Below are positions 26,677-35,270 of a stretch of DNA of 64,000 bases, piece by piece. The notes under the pieces were generated by a model. It was given only the letters and a program-made list of their open reading frames with translations. It did no database searches and was not told where the DNA came from. Source of the stretch: Polyangiaceae bacterium (GTDB lineage Bacteria; Myxococcota_A; Polyangia; Polyangiales; Polyangiaceae); NCBI GenBank assembly GCA_025937835.1, contig JAICQO010000013.1:25931-89930 (forward strand), in the 5' to 3' direction. Position numbers and translations under genes: made by a program. The first letter of the stretch is position 1. Each line of letters opens with the position of its first letter.

Positions 26677-28056
26677 ATGGCTCTGCGTGTCTCGTCTTGG
26701 TCGTGGCCTTGGGCTTGCTTCGTTCTCAGCGCTTGCGCGGGCTCTCAATCCACTCAGGTGGGAACGGGCCCCCTGAAGGGCGAACAGACCGCTGCGAGTG
26801 ACCAGGCCGCGCGCGCGCCGGGCGAGCCCGCAAAGGACGCTCAGGCGTCGGGGCCGGGCAGCGCGAGCCCTGCCGAGCCCGCGGACGGCAGCGCCGACGG
26901 CGCACCCGAGCCGCCGCCGGCGCTCGATCCGCTGCTCGTTCAGAAGGCCATCGACGTCAGCGCGGAAGAGCCTGCCGACGGACGCACGCGGCTCGGCTTG
27001 CGCCTGGCAGCGGTCGCGCAGGGGCCGGACGAACCCTGGCTGCTCGCGGTCGTGAACCGCGGCACCGAGCCTGCGCGCGTGCTGTTCGATCTGCGCCTGT
27101 TGTCCCTGGAGGTGACGCCGCCCGAGCCCGTCTCCGACAAGCCGAAGAAGGCAAAGCCTCCGAAGCCCGTCACTTGCAAGCTGCCGCCGAACGCGCGCCC
27201 CGACGTGCCGCAAGCCGAGCTCGAGGTCGTGCTCGAGCCGGGCGAGGGCGTGGTCGACAGCTTCGATCCGCGCCTGTACTGCTTCTCGAAGAAGCAAGCT
27301 GCGGTCCTCGTCGGCGGCGCAAAGGTCGCGGCCCACCTCGGCTTCGTGGAAAAGACCAAGACCGTCTGGAAGAAGGGCAAGCGCGAGACCGTCGTCGTCG
27401 AGCAGACCCAGCCCTTCGTGGCGCGCCGAGCCGCTGCGCTCCCGGAGCTCGAGAAGCTCGCTGAGGAGCCCGCGCGCGATCCCGGTCCGGGGGCTCCGAG
27501 CTCCGACCGGGACGCAGTCAAGGAGCTGATCGCGCCGGCGATCGAGGTCGCGGCGCGCGCCGCCCCCGCCGAGCCGCCCCCGACCGAGCCGTTCGAGCTG
27601 GTCGCGAGCGACGGCTCCGACGCGGCGACCGCGCGGCAAGTGACGGTGGCGGTGTCGATCGTCAACCGCGGCAAGGAGTCGCGGCACCTGTATTTCCGGC
27701 GCGAAGGCCTGAGCTTCAAGGTGTCCGGCCCGAGCGGCGTCGTGCGCTGCGAGCCTGGCCCCGACGTGCGAGCGCCCGATCGGCAGAGCTTCAGCCGCGT
27801 GAAGCCCGGCGGGCGTGTTCGCGCGGTGAGCCGCTTGATCGAGCTCTGCCCCGACGGGACGTTCGACGAGCCCGGTCTCTACCTGATCGACTCGAGCTTC
27901 GAGGCCACGCGGACCGGCGCGTCCTTCGGGTTCTCGGCTTACACCGGCAGCGTGGAGAGCCGCGAACCGGTGGCCGTGCGTGTCCAAACGGGACCGAAGC
28001 CGTACCTACCCCGGCACCCGCCGCTCATCGTGCGCGTCGGTCAGCCACAACCCTGA
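26677..28056 (+). CDS. Hypothetical lipoprotein
   Basis: Lipobox LSAC after ATG 26677; Pro/Ala linker and two beta-rich domains; coding-like codon pattern. Confidence 0.6.
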   Translation: MALRVSSWSWPWACFVLSACAGSQSTQVGTGPLKGEQTAASDQAARAPGEPAKDAQASGPGSASPAEPADGSADGAPEPPPALDPLLVQKAIDVSAEEPADGRTRLGLRLAAVAQGPDEPWLLAVVNRGTEPARVLFDLRLLSLEVTPPEPVSDKPKKAKPPKPVTCKLPPNARPDVPQAELEVVLEPGEGVVDSFDPRLYCFSKKQAAVLVGGAKVAAHLGFVEKTKTVWKKGKRETVVVEQTQPFVARRAAALPELEKLAEEPARDPGPGAPSSDRDAVKELIAPAIEVAARAAPAEPPPTEPFELVASDGSDAATARQVTVAVSIVNRGKESRHLYFRREGLSFKVSGPSGVVRCEPGPDVRAPDRQSFSRVKPGGRVRAVSRLIELCPDGTFDEPGLYLIDSSFEATRTGASFGFSAYTGSVESREPVAVRVQTGPKPYLPRHPPLIVRVGQPQP

Positions 28057-28099
28057 GCGGCGACTCGGAGCCGACGAACCTGGAGGGAGCTTTCGAGGC

Positions 28100-29341
28100 A
28101 TGGTGGAGATACCCGAGCTCGGTCACGTCGTGGATCGCCGCTACAGGGTCCGGCGCGAGATCGCCCGCGGAGCGGTCGGCGTCGTGTACGAAGCCGATCA
28201 CGGCTACCTGGGCCGCCCGGTGGCGATCAAGCTGTTGCTCCCCGAACAGCGCCGCCTCGAAGACATCAAAATCCGCCTGATTTACGAGGCGCAGGCGCTG
28301 AACGCGGTCCGCCACCCGAGCATCGTCGATGTGCTCGACGCCGGTGTCGACGAAGCCTACGGCCCGTTCCTGGTGACCGAGCTGCTCTCGGGGCGAACGC
28401 TCGAAGGCTTGCTCACCGCGCGGCGCAAGATCGGCGTCGAGGAGACGCGCATCATCGGCCTACGCCTGTGCGACGCGCTCGCTCATGCCCACTCGCGAGG
28501 CGTTATCCACCGCGACATCAAGCCCGGCAACGTCTTCGTGGCGCGCGCCGAAAATGGGCGCGAGTACCTGAAGTTGTTCGATTTCGGGATCGCGCGCTTC
28601 GAACGCGCGGGTGGCCGCAAGCTGACGGGACAGGGCATCGTGATGGGCACGCCCGAGTACATGTCGCCCGAGCAGCTCCACGCCAGTGACGACGTCAACG
28701 AGCGCTCCGACATCTACGCGCTCGGGATCACGCTGTTCGAGTGCTTGACCGGCACCGTGCCGTTCGAGGGCAACTACGCCGACGTGCTGCTGAAGACGGC
28801 GACCGAGCCGATGCCCACGGCCCAGAGCCGAAACCCCGAGGTGCCCGCGGATCTGTCGCGCGCGATCGCGACCGCGCTGCGCTATCACCCCGCCGAGCGC
28901 CATCCGACGATGCGCGCCTTCGCCGAGGCCCTGGCGCCAAAGGGCGGCGCTGCCGAAGCCTCCTCGCTGCTCTCGGGGCCGATCAACCGCGGCGCCCAGC
29001 CGGCGGGCCCCGACGCCGCAGCGGTGAAGCGCAAGTTCCCGCGCGCCCCGTACGTCACGCCGGTTCGCGTGCTCCGCCCCGACGGCACCAGCATCGACGG
29101 CCGCAGCGAAGACGTGTCGGGCGGCGGCCTGTTGGCGGTGCTGACGACCTCGGTCGCGGCCAGCGAGCTCGTGCGCGTCCGCTTCGCGCTGCCGATCGTC
29201 GGCAAAATCGCCGAGCTCGAAGCCACGACGCGCTGGATCCGCACGGCGCGCGGCAAGGACGCCGTGGGCCTCGAGTTCCGCTCCATCACGACGGAGGCCA
29301 AGGAAGCGATCGATCGCTATGTGTCGGCGATGGGCGGGTAG
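28100..29341 (+). CDS. Hanks-type Ser/Thr kinase with C-terminal PilZ domain
   Basis: VAIKLL, HRDIKPGN, DFG, GTPEYMSPE; PilZ motifs RKFPR (RxxxR) and DVSGGG (DxSxxG). Confidence 0.85.
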   Translation: MVEIPELGHVVDRRYRVRREIARGAVGVVYEADHGYLGRPVAIKLLLPEQRRLEDIKIRLIYEAQALNAVRHPSIVDVLDAGVDEAYGPFLVTELLSGRTLEGLLTARRKIGVEETRIIGLRLCDALAHAHSRGVIHRDIKPGNVFVARAENGREYLKLFDFGIARFERAGGRKLTGQGIVMGTPEYMSPEQLHASDDVNERSDIYALGITLFECLTGTVPFEGNYADVLLKTATEPMPTAQSRNPEVPADLSRAIATALRYHPAERHPTMRAFAEALAPKGGAAEASSLLSGPINRGAQPAGPDAAAVKRKFPRAPYVTPVRVLRPDGTSIDGRSEDVSGGGLLAVLTTSVAASELVRVRFALPIVGKIAELEATTRWIRTARGKDAVGLEFRSITTEAKEAIDRYVSAMGG

Positions 29342-29449
29342 CTTGGGTTTGGGGGGCCTCGCTGATAAGAGCGCGACGGGCGTCGAGAGCGACGTGAGGC
29401 AACGCGCGCCGGCGAGGGGAGTGAGCAGCAGCCGCGCCTGCCCGCGCGG

Positions 29450-29580
29450 AGTTGGGGTTCGGGAGGGGGATTCGGCGGTGGCGTCGGGAGCGCATTCGGG
29501 ATCGGCGATGGATCGGAGCGGGATTCGGGTTGGGATCGTGACGGTAGCGGCCGGTTCGAAACAGGGTCCCGGGACCGGGG
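29450..29580. repeat. Degenerate G-rich hexamer-period repeat (GGGATT/CGGGAT/TCGGGT-like)
   Basis: Intergenic; about 6-nt periodicity of G runs on the + strand. Confidence 0.4.
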
Positions 29581-29659
29581 CTCTGGTGCTGCTATGACAA
29601 ACAAAGTCCGTCCGACGCTGTTGGCTGATCCGATACCCGCGCTGTAGGGTGCGTCCCGA

Positions 29660-30433
29660 ATGTCCCGATCGGCATCCACACGGATCCCCACCGGTCTACG
29701 CTCGCAGCTCTCTCGATGGATAAGGATTACCTGGCATCGAGCGCGAGCGGCGATGTTTTCCGGCTCGTGGTGGTTGCGAACCGGAATCTTCCTTCTCTCC
29801 CTAGGCGCTCTCGGTATTCCCGTGTACCAAAAGTCGGTCGGCCTCGGCTTGCTTCACTCCGCCATCACCGTGGTCTTGGTTTTGGGGAAGGCAGCCGTCT
29901 TCAGTTCGAATCGGACGATGAAGATCGTTCACCGGGACTACCTCGAGCGGAAGGCGTTGTTGTACCGCCTCATTAAGGATCTCCAACGTCACCCGGAAAT
30001 GACCAGAGAGGAGGTTTCCCGGTTCCAACGCGAAGCCCTGGAGCTCATCGCTTCCTATGTTCGCGCCCACCGAGCGGACTTCAGCCGCACTGAGATCTTC
30101 GTCAACTTACTCGTGGAAGATGGGGACAGCTTGGTGGTGATAGCGCGAGACCGCGACCACCGGATGCCAGGGGCACGGTACTCTCGTTCGACGATGGCTG
30201 CCGCAAAGGCTTTCGAATCGGGCGACCACATCGTCGTTGGGAACGTGCACCGTGAGTACGGCGATGTGGAAAAGGACTACCGAAGTATCCTGGTGCTGCC
30301 TGTGCGTGGCCGCTCGGGGATCTCGGCAGTGGTTTCGATAGACAGCGCCCGTGCCCACCATTTCGATCTAGAGGCCCGGGACTTGGAACGTTTTCTGCAG
30401 CCCTACCTCGGGCTCCTTGAATGGACGCTGTAA
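29660..30433 (+). CDS. Hypothetical 2TM + GAF-like domain protein, atypical composition
   Basis: Two hydrophobic segments near the N-terminus; C-terminal YRSILVLPV...AVVSIDS...HF pattern typical of GAF folds; lower GC and many A/T-ending codons. Confidence 0.6.
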   Translation: MSRSASTRIPTGLRSQLSRWIRITWHRARAAMFSGSWWLRTGIFLLSLGALGIPVYQKSVGLGLLHSAITVVLVLGKAAVFSSNRTMKIVHRDYLERKALLYRLIKDLQRHPEMTREEVSRFQREALELIASYVRAHRADFSRTEIFVNLLVEDGDSLVVIARDRDHRMPGARYSRSTMAAAKAFESGDHIVVGNVHREYGDVEKDYRSILVLPVRGRSGISAVVSIDSARAHHFDLEARDLERFLQPYLGLLEWTL

Positions 30434-30461
30434 TCATGCGAGGGTATCCCCAGCCCTGACG

Positions 30462-30674
30462 ATGGAAACCATCACGAACTCGGAGATGTTCGAACGGGTC
30501 GCGAGGCGCGAGATCTCGCCGCGGGAAGCGGCCCGCATCCTCGTTGAGCGGGACGACGTGGCGCGAAGGCAGCAAGTCTCTGCGGCGCGCCCTCGCTGGA
30601 TTCCGCGGTGGGCGTGGGGTGTAGCGTCTGTTGTGATTGTAGGTGTCCTCGACCACCTACAGCGACGAAGCTAG
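30462..30674 (+). CDS. Small hypothetical membrane protein (70 aa)
   Basis: METITNSEMF...ISPREAARIL...WIPRWAWGVASVVIVGVL; same atypical composition; follows the previous ORF. Confidence 0.5.
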   Translation: METITNSEMFERVARREISPREAARILVERDDVARRQQVSAARPRWIPRWAWGVASVVIVGVLDHLQRRS

Positions 30675-30688
30675 GCGTTGGTCCCTCG

Positions 30689-30717
30689 TGCGCTGAGGCG
30701 CTTATGCGCTGAGGCGC
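30689..30717. repeat. 13-bp direct repeat TGCGCTGAGGCGC x2 separated by TTA
   Basis: Copies at 30689-30701 and 30705-30717, at the right edge of the low-GC islet. Confidence 0.7.
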
Positions 30718-30729
30718 GACCTCGTCAGT

Positions 30730-31881
30730 TCAGCGCGGCTTTTGAACCGCGTCGAGCTCTTCGAGGTTCGCTTTGGCGCGCGGATCCTCGGGGTCGAGGG
30801 CGAGCGCGCGCTGAAAGGCCTTGCGCGCGCGGTCGTGGTCGCCGCGCTTGGCGTGGACGAGGCCGAGGTTGATCCAGCCCGAGCCGAGGTTCGGGTCGAG
30901 CCGGGTCGCGTCTTCCGCATGGGACAGCGCTCCCGCGAGGTCGCCCTGGAGCAGGCGCGCGTAGGCCAGGTTCGAGTGCAGCGCTGCGCGGCTTGCGTCG
31001 AGGGCCACGGCGCGCTCGAGCTCGTGCACGGCCTGATCGAGGAAGCCGGCAGACAGGTACGCCGCGCCGAGATCCCCGCGCGAGCGCGCGTCGCTCGGCG
31101 CGAGCGTCACCGCGCGGGAAAAATCGGAGATCGCCTCCGAGACCTGCCCCAGCACGAGCTCGGTTGCGCCGAGCGCGCGCCAGCGTTCGAGCGCGCCGGG
31201 ATCGAGCTCCACGGCACGCCGCAGCGGGGCGAGCGCCTGGGCCGCGTTGCCCGTGGACAGGAGCGCGACGCCGAGCGCCGAGTGAGCCTCCGGATCGTCC
31301 GGCACGAGCGTGACGGCGCGCCGTAGCGCTTCGAGCGCCCGCGCTCCCTCACCCAGCATCAAGAGCACCCGGCCGCGCTCGAGCTCGGCGGGGCCGAACG
31401 CGGCGTCGAGCTTGTTCGCGGCGTCGAGCTTCGCGAGCAGCGCGAGCAGCTTCGGGTCTCTGGGCGCCGCGCCGAACTCGCTGGCGATGCCGGACTCGGC
31501 GAGCGCGACGCGGACCAGGCCGACCTTCGGTGCCGCGGCGCCTGGCGCGAGCTTCTCGGCGCGTTTGTAAGCGGCCAGGGCCGCCTTCGAATCGTCGGCG
31601 GCGTAAGCTCGATCGCCCTCCGCAAGCGCCCTATCGAGCGCGCTGTTGCTGGCCCCTGCCAGGCCGCGCGGAGGCAGCGGCTCGGTGGCGAGCGGCGCGG
31701 CCGCCGCTGCGCTGCTCGGAGCGGGCGCTGTTTCAGCCGGCGCGGCGGGGGGCGGCGCGGACTCGACGGGAGCTGCCGCGAGCGCCGACTCAGAACCCGG
31801 AGGCGGCGCCGCCGCGGGGGGAGGCGAGGCGCCGCGACCCGCGCAGGCGAAGAGGAACAGACACAGCCACGACGCGCGCAC
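30730..31881 (-). CDS. TPR-repeat lipoprotein
   Basis: Lipobox LFAC; many TPRs (EAHSALGVALL, WINLGLVHAKRGD...ALALDP). Confidence 0.8.
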   Translation of the reverse strand: MRASWLCLFLFACAGRGASPPPAAAPPPGSESALAAAPVESAPPPAAPAETAPAPSSAAAAAPLATEPLPPRGLAGASNSALDRALAEGDRAYAADDSKAALAAYKRAEKLAPGAAAPKVGLVRVALAESGIASEFGAAPRDPKLLALLAKLDAANKLDAAFGPAELERGRVLLMLGEGARALEALRRAVTLVPDDPEAHSALGVALLSTGNAAQALAPLRRAVELDPGALERWRALGATELVLGQVSEAISDFSRAVTLAPSDARSRGDLGAAYLSAGFLDQAVHELERAVALDASRAALHSNLAYARLLQGDLAGALSHAEDATRLDPNLGSGWINLGLVHAKRGDHDRARKAFQRALALDPEDPRAKANLEELDAVQKPR

Positions 31882-31900: not shown

Positions 31901-33463
31901 TCAGCTGTCGGAGCTTCGCGACGAGTGCTCTTTGCCGTCGTAGCGCAGCACCACCGCCTTGCCGTCGGCGCGCGTCGCGAGACACACCGGACGGCGCCAG
32001 ATCCGCACCAGCGCCGAGAGCGTCTCGCGCGCGTAGTCGGCGCGCAGATCCACGCCGCGGTGGTCGTGCGTGAGCAAGAGCTCTCCGCGGTTCTCGAAGT
32101 TCGAATCCTCCACGAAAATTTGGGGATTCCCGAAGTTCGTGAGCTGCGCGAGCAACTTCTCCTTCACGGCGCGGAACTCGCGGGACTCGATCTCGAAGCG
32201 CTCGCTGCGGTTCGACCAGCTGTAGCTGAACAGCTTGTGCTCGATCGCGAACTCCTCGGTCAAGAACTCGTCGATGAAGGTGACGTCGTTGTACATCGCC
32301 CGCACCTCGAACACCTTGTCGCGTCCGAGGCCGAGCCGCAGATCCCAGTTCTTCTTGTCGTCGAGGTCGCTGCACTCTTCCCACTCGCGCCCGAACTGCC
32401 CGCGGTTCCAGCGATCCTCGATGCTGCGGAACAGCTCGACGCCGAGCTTGTACGGGTTCAGGCGGCCGCCGGAGGTCGCCATCACGCCCGCGTTGTTCTC
32501 GGCGTAGTCTACGATCTCGCTCCAGTCGCAGACGTCGCCCGTCATCATCTTCGAGTGCCAGTAAGACGCCCAGCCCTCGTTCATGATCTTGGTCTGCATC
32601 TGCGGCACGAAGTAATAGCCCTCTTCGCGGATGATGCTGAGGATCGCGCGCTCCCAGCGCTCGAGCGGCGCGTTCTCGATCAAGAACAAGAGCACGTCCT
32701 GCTCGCGCGTCTGCGGGTGTTTCCCCTTGGATTTCTCGCGCTCGAGCGTCAGCTTCTTCTTCTGCTCCTCGATGTACTCGGACGGGTTGATGAACTCGTC
32801 CATGTACTCCTTGGCGCGCATGCGCGGGACCTCGACCTCGCGCGGGTGCTCGTCCTCCTCGTCTTCCACCGTGCGGCGCACCACGAAGCGCGACCAGGGG
32901 TCGATCAGGTTCTCGAGCGACAGGCAGACGTCGATGAACTCTTCCGTACGCTGGATGCCGTAGCGGTCGACGATCCGGCGCACGGCCGCGCCGTGGTTCG
33001 CCATCTTGTCGATCCATTTGCGGTTCGGGTCGTAGCCGTTGCCGCGCTTGGTGGTCGGGTCGACCACGCGATCCATCGTGTCGAGGTCCGTCGAGCGGAA
33101 CGTGAAGTTGTTCTTGAAGAAGTCCACGTGGCCGAACACGTGGCACATCACGAGCTTCTGGTCGGTGAGGCTGTTGCCCTCGAGCAGGTAGGCGAACGAG
33201 GGGTTGTTGTTGATGACCATCTCGTAGATCTTCGAGAGGCCGTACTCGTAGCTCTTGGCCAGGCGCTCGTACTCCATGCCGAAGCGCCAGTGCGGGTAGC
33301 GGTTCGGGAAGCCGCCGTAGGCCGCGATCTCGTTCATCTGCGAGTAGCTCAGCATCTCGAACACGACCGGGAAGAAGTCGAGCCCGTGCGAGCGCGCGAT
33401 CTTCTCGATCTTGTCCTGTTCGATGCGGAGGTAGCGGGGCAAGCTGGGGTGCGCGAGCGTCAT
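31901..33463 (-). CDS. spoVR: SpoVR family protein
   Basis: [48 protein letters not shown]. Confidence 0.92.
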
Positions 33464-34572
33464 TTTCCCTTACCCAAGAAGTCTTTGATGCTGCCGACGA
33501 TCGCGTCGCGATCGCGGATTTCACTGGTGACCACGCGCTCGTCACCCGACAGGTGCTCGCGCAGGTCCTTGATGAACTGGCCGGAGCCGTACGGGCTCTC
33601 GACCTGGCCGTAGGCGAACATGTTCACGCGCGGCAGCACGTCCCGCTTCAGAATCTCGACGCAGGTCAGCGTGTCCTCCATCGACCAGTTGTCGCCGTCG
33701 GAGAAGTGGAAGGGGTACACGTTCCACTCGGTGCTCGGGTAGTGCTGGTCGATGAGCTGCGCCGCCAGCCGGTAGGCGCTCGAAATCATCGTCCCTCCCG
33801 ACTCGCGCGTGCGGAAGAAGGTGTCGCGATCCACCTCGCGCGCGACCGCGTCGTGGATGATGTAGCGGCTCTCGAGGCCCTGGTATTGCCGCCTGAGCCA
33901 CGCGTCGATCCAGAAGCTCTCGATGCGCACGATCTCCTTCTGCTCGTCGCCCATCGAGCCGGAGACATCCATCATGTAGATGATCACGGCGTTGGCGACC
34001 GGCTCGAGGTCTTCCGTCCAGGAGCGGTAGCGCTTGTCCTCGTGCTGCGGCACCACCAGCGGGTTCTTGGGGTCGTAGGCGCCGCTGGCGATCGCGCGCT
34101 TCAGGCCCTCGCGGTAGGTGCGCTTGAAGTGACGCAGCGACTCCGGGCCGACGCGACGGATGCCCGTGTACTTGTCCTTGGCGGCGATGATCCGGCTCTT
34201 GCCCTTGTTCTCGATCGCGGGCAGCTCCAGCTCCTCCCCGAGGATGTCGGCCAATTCGTCGAGCGTGATGTCGACCTCGAGGATGTGCTCGCCCGCGTCC
34301 TTGCCGGCCTGTCCAGCGCCGTCTTGCTGCTCGTCGCCTTCGCCGCCGACCGCGTCGCCGACCTCGCCGTCACCCTGCCCGACGCCGCCCTTCTGCTTGT
34401 CTCCGAAGATGAATCGCGGTGTGTCGATGTGCGGGACCGGGATGCTGACGATGTCCTTACCCTTGCGACCGAGCAGCTCGCCCTGCGAGATGTAGCGCCT
34501 CAGGTTGTCGCGGATCTTGCCGCGGACGATGCCGCGGAAGCGCGAGTGATCCTGGTCGATCTTCAGAGACAT
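33460..34572 (-). CDS. yeaH: YeaH/YhbH (DUF444) vWA-like protein
   Basis: [48 protein letters not shown]; ATG 34572. Confidence 0.9.
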
Positions 34573-34694
34573 CTCAGGCAGTGTCGCATACTTCCGGGGC
34601 TTCGACCGCAATCCCGGCGCGGGCCTCGGCGCCCGGTTCCTTACACCGTCCTGGACGCGCGGCCGCCTCCGTGAGTAAAGAGGCGTCTGACGTC

Positions 34695-35270
34695 GTGAGA
34701 AGCCCAAAAGAGCTGCTGAAGTTCCGTTGCACGGGTTGCGGTAACTGCTGCAAAGAGCCGCTGCTTCCGCTGACCTGTGCCGACGTGATCCGGATCCGCG
34801 AGAGCACCGGCGACGACCCGATGGACTTCGTGCGTTTCGTGGACGAGGACGCGATCGACCTCGACGGCGAGCCCGAGGCGTTCGCGCTGCTCGGCCAGGG
34901 AAAGCGGGTGATGATCCTGCGCCACCAGGCCGGCGGCTGTCGCTACCTCGGTGAAGATCTGCGCTGCAAGATCTACGATTCCCGCCCGCTCGGTTGTCGG
35001 ATCTTCCCGTTCGACCCGGCCTTCGACAAGCAAGGCGGCTTGCGGCGGCTGAAGCTGATCCAGGCCACCGACTGCAAATACGAGCTCGACGGCGGCAACG
35101 ACCCGGGCGAGCTCCGCACGCTGCACCAGCGCTACGAAGCGGCAACCGCGCTCTACCAGCAGAAGATCGCCGCCTGGAACCGCGAGCAACAGCGCAGAAA
35201 GCGCCAGGGCAAGCGGCCGCAGAGCTCGCGCCGGTTCCTGAGCTACCTGGGCGCGCTGGCCAAGAGCTGA
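34695..35270 (+). CDS. YkgJ-family Cys cluster (putative Fe-S/Zn) protein
   Basis: [12 protein letters not shown]...[16 protein letters not shown]; start approximate. Confidence 0.8.

Follow-up and report, generated by a model that had tools for sequence, protein, structure and literature searches.

The 64,000-nucleotide stretch of Polyangiaceae DNA analysed here (hereafter the window) raises the question of what a lower-GC islet of two genes, at positions 29660-30674, does for the cell that carries it. The first gene of the islet, gene A (29660-30433, + strand), encodes a 257-amino-acid (aa) membrane-anchored, stand-alone GAF protein, and the second, gene B (30462-30674, + strand), encodes a small partner of 70 aa. 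The reading that we favour, with a probability of roughly 45%, is that the two genes form a mobile membrane module that is complete in itself and of the toxin/immunity type, with A as the effector and B as its neutraliser. We read the signature in this way because a membrane hairpin and a GAF domain with a constellation of conserved polar residues are combined with an obligatory mini-protein and with no other gene, and because the unit is mobile. Such a module would most likely serve in phage exclusion, abortive infection or addiction.

The islet as an insertion

The original prediction had singled out the islet for its lower GC content, and both sliding-window GC and GC at third codon positions (GC3) bear this out. 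The islet (1015 bp) has a GC content of 0.603, which is the minimum over all 1015-bp segments of the 64 kb (mean 0.692, standard deviation 0.030; 0.3% of segments as low as the islet) in a window that is ~69% GC overall, and 300-bp segments go down to 0.57 at 29700-30150. GC3 is 0.71 for gene A and 0.69 for gene B, compared with 0.874 ± 0.053 for the 44 open reading frames (ORFs) of 150 aa or more that the window contains, among which the value for gene A is the minimum. A SpoVR-like gene at 31901-33463 is also low in total GC, yet its GC3 is 0.95; the islet is therefore the only stretch of the window with atypical codon usage. (Note that the minus-strand stretch 31901-35145, which holds the SpoVR-like gene and a DUF444-type (YeaH-like) gene, has a total GC content of 0.60-0.65; the high GC3 of the SpoVR-like gene argues that the dip there reflects amino-acid composition rather than foreign DNA.)

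Upstream of the islet lies a gene (27980-29341, + strand) for a Ser/Thr kinase that carries a PilZ domain at its C-terminus, and downstream, on the other strand, lies a gene for a TPR protein (30730-31881), followed by the SpoVR-like and DUF444-type genes. The kinase and TPR genes are 1388 bp apart in the window. In four genomes of the same genus (G006, G015, G008 and G011) the two genes are convergent at a site that is empty, with distances of ~190, ~20, ~195 and ~45 bp, respectively; in a fifth congener (G003) the gap is ~500 bp and holds no homologue of gene A or gene B. Six further congeners (L013, L015, L016, L018, L019 and L020) carry an unrelated gene at the same site, for a protein of ~385-407 aa that is Gly/Ser-rich and Cys-rich (with a CDCxxGxYCxDG motif) and has a lipoprotein-like N-terminus. 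Within the genus, at least three states of the site can thus be told apart.

Six-frame searches for gene A found a homologue in none of 24 same-genus and 16 same-order genomes; of 400 other genomes sampled from across the phylum, one has it. The islet is thus inserted DNA of ~1.4 kb, both rare and patchy in its occurrence. Horizontal acquisition, which the original prediction had proposed, is supported by the empty sites in four congeners together with these counts, and vertical conservation at the locus was not seen in any of the 40 related genomes. No flanking direct repeat (target-site duplication or att site) was found to bracket the islet, and the empty-site relatives, with ~50% protein identity in the flanks, are too divergent to fix the boundaries of the insertion.

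A sister contig from a Myxococcota metagenome-assembled genome (L025), 97% identical, carries the islet between the same flanks. Gene A differs between the two at 32 of 774 nucleotides, matching the divergence of the flanking kinase gene (50 of 1242), and 24 of the differences are synonymous whereas 8 are non-synonymous. The matching divergence and the excess of synonymous changes indicate that the islet is older than the split between the strains and is under purifying selection. (Codon 94 of gene A is TAG in the sister contig, at L025:2978-2980, rather than the TAC (Tyr) found at 29939-29941 of the window, and would truncate the protein; this could be a sequencing error, the coverage of the contig being 1.6x, or a recent inactivation.)

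The two proteins and their pairing

The 257-aa ORF with two N-terminal hydrophobic helices that had been claimed for the islet is present in the sequence. Hydropathy places the hydrophobic segments of gene A at residues ~37-58 and 58-85, joined by a loop of 6-8 residues. We modelled the protein with AlphaFold2 (AF2) from an alignment of 20 relatives (mean predicted local distance difference test score (pLDDT) 82, predicted TM-score 0.71). The model begins with an Arg-rich amphipathic helix, predicted to be cytoplasmic, at residues 13-32 (29696-29755, + strand); residues 1-36 contain seven Lys or Arg and no Asp or Glu, and the basic stretch is kept in those relatives that have the region. A predicted transmembrane hairpin follows at residues 35-82 (29762-29905, + strand), its first helix spanning 35-58 and its second 60-82, with YQKSVG as the outer loop. 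The hydropathy peaks and the positive-inside charge pattern are kept in the 20 relatives, and the Lys/Arg-rich flanks of the hairpin lead us to predict that both of its ends, and hence the GAF domain, are cytoplasmic.

The remainder of the protein, residues 85-257 (29912-30430, + strand), is assigned from Pfam, AF2 and Foldseek to linker helices (85-137) and a GAF alpha/beta core. The strands of the modelled core are at 146-154, 157-163, 173-175, 191-193, 209-216 and 221-229, and C-terminal helices occupy 239-256. Pfam gives sub-threshold matches to gene A for both GAF_2 (19.5 bits, E = 0.0012, cut-off 28.6) and GAF (15.8 bits, cut-off 22.4), and several relatives score over the cut-offs (P0031 with 29.7 bits for GAF_2 and 22.9 for GAF, P0123 with 24.3 for GAF and P0140 with 23.0 for GAF). 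A Foldseek search of the PDB with the gene A model returned 171 matches at E<=1e-3, and the best 50 of the 171 are all GAF or GAF-containing chains, among which single-domain GAF chains reach target-normalised TM-scores of up to 0.72. As modelled, then, the C-terminal part of gene A is a GAF fold, and the earlier description of a GAF-like C-terminus that lacks a fused output domain holds up in both the AF2 model and the Foldseek comparison with the PDB.

Eleven polar or aromatic residues do not vary in either of two alignments, a close one of 20 relatives and a distant one of 10: R97, R135, D140, R163, Y174, Y207, S209, D228, S229, H234 and F235. The motifs VRxHRxD, IFVNLL, KPYRSIL, SIDS and HHFD are kept down to 20-30% identity. 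By profile, the closest solved relatives of gene A are single-domain GAF proteins of the free methionine-(R)-sulfoxide reductase (fRMsr) type (E = 0.002), and in a hidden Markov model (HMM) alignment to fRMsr Y207/S209 and D228/S229 fall on the positions of the DIDS and S-E motifs, which we take to line the ligand cavity. This conservation suggests a small-molecule site in the GAF domain, and the Arg/His/Asp/Ser/Tyr constellation provides a concrete candidate for its ligand pocket.

The same invariant polar residues, and the fact that GAF domains are overwhelmingly sensory, would also suit a pair that is not toxic at all. According to this alternative the two proteins form a sensory or regulatory membrane complex, in which the GAF domain binds a cytoplasmic metabolite and, with the partner, modulates a membrane process, the whole being an accessory trait carried by mobile elements. 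Set against it is the lack of an output domain in gene A; we return to it below, where the genomic contexts bear on it.

Gene B is 70 aa long when read from its ATG. A TTG further upstream, at 30417, would yield 85 aa; homologues of gene B begin at the position of the ATG. The AF2 model (pLDDT 86) has helices at 6-14, 20-42 and 49-69, and the layout that emerges is a helical hairpin (6-42), a Trp/Arg-rich interfacial motif (RPRWIPRWAW), a C-terminal transmembrane helix (49-69) and an RR tail. The C-terminal transmembrane segment ascribed to the 70-aa ORF is thus present, as a hydrophobic helix at 49-69 in both hydropathy and the AF2 model. SHOCT-like_DUF2089-C matches weakly in 5 of 14 members of the gene B family (best E = 0.008); beyond this Pfam gave no match for gene B, and in particular no Panacea or DNA-binding domain.

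A word-indexed search found 25 relatives of gene A. When an HMM was run exhaustively against 1.8 billion cluster representatives, 1042 of them matched at E<=1e-3 and 104 still did so at E<=1e-30. Each of the dozens of family sequences that we looked at has hydrophobic helices at its N-terminus and, after them, the same GAF core. All eight loci from our genome collection are from Myxococcota; other named members of the family come from Methylocaldum sp. 14B and a Methylococcaceae metagenome-assembled genome, and one locus is from a 43%-GC organism.

Gene A and gene B, a pair kept across several bacterial phyla, occur together in every readable locus, in 18 distinct contexts from Myxococcota, Methylococcaceae and the 43%-GC organism (the window with L025, L002/L026, L003, L004, L005, L006, L007/L008, the P0016 contig, L027, L028, L029, L030, L031, L032, L033, L034/L035, L038 and L040/L041). 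In each, an ORF of 60-76 aa with the layout of gene B follows the GAF gene, often overlapping its stop codon, and these start/stop overlaps suggest that translation of A and B is coupled. The small ORF, which had been put forward as a partner of the GAF gene, is therefore a real and co-inherited one. (In one metagenomic contig, at L006:2158-3300, the GAF gene and its partner are both frameshifted, either through long-read indel errors or because this copy of the pair is decaying.)

To look for further constant companions, we took every ORF from up to 4 kb around the pair at 16 loci and compared all of them with one another. Among the clusters that recur across unrelated loci, A is found in 16 of 16 and B, by BLAST, in 14 of 16; the remaining clusters are antisense shadows, Ser/Thr kinases (5 loci) and the flanks shared by three syntenic loci. 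Since no third gene is conserved among the 16 loci, the module is self-contained.

Genomic company and candidate functions

The contexts in which relatives of the pair are found are of several kinds. Three are phage-like: in L003 a tape-measure gene (2.7e-46), an anti-repressor and a repressor are nearby and the pair and the end of the tail operon are oriented convergently; L005 combines a series of small genes with a gene for a Sak4-like annealing protein (7.5e-41); and L007 has a gene for a tail-spike-like protein (9e-9). Others involve defence genes. A type IIG restriction enzyme of the MmeI family directly adjoins the pair in L038 (PADLOC 2e-183, with Pfam MmeI domains), an MmeI-like enzyme and a 1138-aa helicase flank it on the P0016 contig, SspB/SspC are 1.7 kb from it in L041, and in Methylocaldum sp. 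14B (L040) a type I HsdR is 3 kb off and the pair sits between two transposase genes. Toxin-antitoxin genes (HipA, Phd/PIN) adjoin the pair in L002. Mobile-element genes accompany it in L028 (a tyrosine integrase), L033 (a weak integrase-arm match), L027 (a Mu-transposase fragment) and L006 (a resolvase).

The transposases that bracket the pair in Methylocaldum sp. 14B, at L040:4442-8071, differ from each other (a DDE_3 protein with a helix-turn-helix domain and a DDE_Tnp_1 protein). The same transposase-bracketed unit is present in a second metagenomic place, beside SspB/SspC, as if a composite unit moves.

Not every copy keeps such company. In L030, L031 and L032, three genomes of a distant clade, the pair is chromosomal and syntenic (SpeA, UvrD-like helicase, pair, lipoprotein, kinase, NadA), an arrangement that looks more housekeeping-like, and the window copy and its counterpart in L025 are bare inserts with no mobile-element or defence gene within 5 kb. 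The linkage to defence loci that the original prediction anticipated is thus seen in part: pairs do lie in prophages and beside restriction, Ssp and toxin-antitoxin genes, whereas one clade is syntenic and chromosomal.

These two observations weigh against a mobile toxin/immunity module, and several others do so as well. The association of the pair with mobile and defence DNA, noted without a background rate for random Myxococcota genes, is suggestive rather than statistical. Used as tblastn queries, the window protein and two distant relatives of lower GC had no match among 50,697 INPHARED phage genomes or 72,556 PLSDB plasmids, and a pattern scan of IMG/VR confirmed no relative. The PADLOC, NCBIfam and PHROG models gave nothing meaningful for gene A or gene B; the only PADLOC match to gene A, to PD-T4-6 over residues 66-132 (E = 0.0059, 13.6 bits), is not meaningful. 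In addition, the Methylocaldum partner keeps the N-terminal hairpin of gene B and has an amphipathic C-terminus with no clear transmembrane helix, which also suggests that the hairpin is the conserved working part of the protein.

The synteny in three genomes of a distant clade and the bare surroundings of the window copy count in favour of the sensory or regulatory complex introduced above. Were that alternative true there would be something for the complex to regulate, and no third gene is conserved beside the pair; the neighbours are wholly different between loci. Nor would one expect of such a complex that it be very rare and patchy, or that it be placed repeatedly as prophage cargo, between insertion sequences or beside restriction genes. 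We regard a harmless sensor as somewhat unlikely; if it is one, then the islet is simply an uncharacterised accessory gene pair.

The toxin/immunity-type module would work as follows, by analogy with two systems considered in the last section, toxFtsL(D9) and the T4 holin/antiholin pair, whose experimental study demonstrates that a design of this kind can function. Gene A would be the effector, anchored in the inner membrane by its two-helix hairpin, with the cytoplasmic GAF domain as a control surface. Gene B, translated just downstream and probably coupled to A, would be anchored in the same membrane through its C-terminal helix, and its SHOCT-like hairpin would bind A, at the GAF domain or at the hairpin, so as to block the self-association or the action of A. 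The hold would be lost if B were displaced or degraded, or if a ligand or a phage product entered the GAF pocket, and the A thereby released would hit the membrane or the division machinery and the cell would stop. What we observe is the anatomy, the pairing without a third gene, the insertion, its rarity and the mobile-element and defence genes nearby; the toxicity of A, the neutralising role of B, a ligand and an effect on phage we infer.

We found no description of the family in the literature on two-transmembrane GAF or GAF-holin systems. Its members are annotated only as "GAF domain-containing" or "hypothetical", there is no dedicated Pfam, NCBIfam, PHROG or PADLOC model, and the family is undescribed. 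Should the pair be a toxin/immunity or defence module, it would represent a family of ~1000 cluster representatives at E<=1e-3 that joins a small set of membrane-acting effectors controlled via a sensory domain. Note that Methylocaldum sp. 14B is a cultured strain that carries a member, WP_143735043.1 with a 67-aa ORF downstream of it, so that cloning from real DNA is possible.

The DNA around the two genes contains the repeats that the original prediction had described, a G-rich repeat on the left and a 13-nt repeat on the right. The latter, with the unit TGCGCTGAGGCGC, is present in two copies (30689-30701 and 30705-30717, 16 nt from start to start) between the convergent stop codons of gene B and the TPR gene (30689-30717, + strand). 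On the + strand the copies are predicted to form a hairpin of -31.2 kcal/mol (z = -1.8; 8 of 200 shuffles were equally good) and are possibly the 3' stem-loop of the operon. In L025, the sister locus of 97% identity, the repeat appears in degenerate form, which argues against a strong constraint on its exact sequence. On the other side, the lineage-specific intergenic region upstream of gene A (29342-29659, + strand) includes the G-rich unit GGAG(G/C)GGGATTCGG at 29462-29475 and 29515-29528 and, according to Tandem Repeats Finder, a period-11 array at 29497-29524. This region is 97% conserved in the sister locus and missing where the site is empty and the whole gap is 21-195 bp, and the promoter presumably sits within it. 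No fold better than that of shuffled sequences was found for the G-rich repeat region (z = +1.2), Rfam gave no match at E<=1 over 28800-31200, and neither a consensus sigma-70 promoter nor an intrinsic (U-tract) terminator was found around the islet. A proline-rich minus-strand ORF of 124 aa (29317-29691) spans the G-rich repeats; most likely it results from the strand bias of the repeat and does not represent a gene.

Two further observations concern the neighbouring genes. The kinase-PilZ gene (Pkinase 7.8e-41, PilZ 2.1e-13) is kept beside the TPR/SpoVR cluster genus-wide, and its product may couple cyclic di-GMP sensing with phosphorylation. Moreover, two congeners have an extra gene of 143 aa between the SpoVR-like and TPR genes (L016:2694-3125 and L020:1028-1459) that is not in the window, another small indel within an otherwise syntenic cluster.

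Relation to known systems

Several known systems resemble the pair in part. The fRMsr GAF domains (PDB 3ksf, 3mmh, 1vhm and 1f5m), which are the closest GAF subfamily by profile, are also among the best matches by fold, and they share with gene A the pattern S-x-(I/L)-x-x-P...(S/D)-I-D-S...F-D. In free methionine-(R)-sulfoxide reductases, cysteines in the GAF cavity are catalytic. The gene A family differs in that the alignments of 20 and of 10 relatives contain no invariant or nearly invariant Cys column, and gene A differs further in being membrane-anchored. We therefore rejected an fRMsr enzyme identity for gene A, on the grounds that no cysteine is conserved in the family.

A second group comprises the effectors Cap14/Cap15, PycTM and Cam1 of, respectively, the cyclic-oligonucleotide-based anti-phage signalling system (CBASS), the pyrimidine cyclase system for anti-phage resistance (Pycsar) and type III CRISPR. 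These share with gene A short N-terminal transmembrane segments and a cytoplasmic small-molecule-sensing domain, and they share with the pair its locations in defence islands and prophages. They are, however, encoded with a cyclase that makes their ligand and their sensors are SAVED, CAP-type cyclic-nucleotide-binding or CARF domains, whereas the pair has a GAF sensor, no cyclase conserved nearby and an obligatory small membrane partner. The Pfam lists of the pair's neighbours include no CD-NTase or Pycsar cyclase, and because no cyclase is conserved nearby in the 16 loci we rejected membership among CBASS/Pycsar-style effectors. The original picture of a ligand-gated effector of that style accordingly finds no direct support, given that no cyclase or other signal-making gene is conserved near the pair; that gene A binds some ligand through its GAF domain is nonetheless plausible.

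A third resemblance is to the holins of T4-like phages. When the gene A model was compared by Foldseek with the viral models of BFVD, matches annotated as class III holin, holin or T holin were obtained (E-values of 5.9e-5, 7.7e-4 and 2.9e-3, probability 1.0) from Proteus phages Stubb and phiP4-3 and from Serratia phage PS2, the T holin of PS2 giving a target-normalised TM-score of 0.60 at a root-mean-square deviation of 4.4. A 251-aa membrane protein of a Gordonia phage aligned over its whole length (E = 7.6e-8), and many phage proteins of 190-250 aa match the transmembrane-plus-GAF model, several of them being "GAF domain-containing" proteins of 205-240 aa. On these model comparisons the soluble domain of holin T may itself be GAF-like, a point that we found stated in no paper. 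In T4, the membrane-anchored antiholin RI binds the soluble domain of the holin and stops holins from making the contact with one another that hole formation requires (PMC11413866). The T/RI pair is like the pair described here in consisting of a membrane-anchored alpha/beta protein of ~220-260 aa and a small membrane-anchored partner. Holin T, however, has one transmembrane helix and a periplasmic domain, whereas gene A has a two-helix hairpin and a domain that is predicted to be cytoplasmic. We rejected membership of gene A in the T4 holin T family (PF11031) because hhalign gave a probability of 0.4% (E = 0.15), there was no PF11031 match and the topology is inverted; T4 T itself scored 1.5e-118 against PF11031.

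The holin-like matches, which include T-type holins and a phage membrane protein of the same length as gene A, together with the three phage-like contexts and a layout of two membrane proteins that fits the holin/antiholin logic (PMC11413866), raise the possibility that the pair times phage lysis. Gene A would then be a class-III-like holin with a GAF-like soluble domain, gene B its antiholin, and the chromosomal copies prophage remnants. We think this very unlikely. Gene A has no sequence relationship to T4 holin T and the opposite topology; no endolysin or spanin was identified beside the pair in any of the phage loci, in two of which (L003 and L005) the pair lies where gene blocks of opposite orientation meet, a frequent position of cargo genes. 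Many copies, furthermore, neighbour restriction genes or insertion sequences in DNA that is not that of a phage, and the window copy shows purifying selection and forms a clean insert of 1.4 kb.

The holin-like resemblance can also be joined to the toxin/immunity reading in a more specific form, namely an anti-phage family in which a SHOCT-like, tail-anchored "antiholin" restrains a holin-like, cytoplasm-facing GAF protein until the conserved GAF pocket of the latter binds a small molecule that is made by the phage or induced by infection. In this narrow form we judge the proposal unlikely. If true, it would describe a suicide pore that is gated by a ligand yet requires no cyclase in the module itself, and an inside-out counterpart of T4 holin T/RI that has been recruited by hosts and prophages.

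A close counterpart in architecture is toxFtsL(D9) of Gelidibacter mesophilus (WP_027127282.1), an experimentally validated toxin of 281 aa that is annotated "GAF; FtsL; transmembrane" (Ernits et al. 2023, PMC10440598). The toxin and its antitoxin PanA were identified when mobile toxin-antitoxin and defence modules were surveyed. In E. coli, toxFtsL(D9) prevents the divisome from assembling, with filamentation and FtsZ delocalisation and no depolarisation, and lysis follows; the small product of the adjacent gene neutralises it, the two proteins having consecutive accessions (PMC10440598). The comparison with gene A is by published description only and amounts to a resemblance; the named members of the gene A cluster that were found come from Methylocaldum and a Methylococcaceae metagenome-assembled genome, none from Gelidibacter. 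The adjacent antitoxin in that system has a Panacea domain, whereas here the partner is a SHOCT-like, tail-anchored mini-protein.

The pair might also be a classical toxin-antitoxin (addiction) pair that, like toxFtsL(D9):PanA, hits cell division and not the integrity of the membrane; A would disturb the assembly of the divisome by way of its membrane and coiled helices, with B as a swapped-in antitoxin. Such a pair is a variant of the toxin/immunity module that has another target. In its favour are the match by description (transmembrane, helical and GAF parts in 281 aa), the swapping of partners that is a theme of the same survey (PMC10440598) and the toxin-antitoxin genes that adjoin the pair in L002. 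Gene B, on the other hand, has neither a Panacea nor a DNA-binding domain and gene A has no match to FtsL or DivIC in Pfam at E<=1, and we consider this version quite unlikely. If the islet is the toxin/immunity or defence module that we favour, then it would connect GAF sensors, holin/antiholin control of the T4 type and toxFtsL(D9), which have so far been treated separately.

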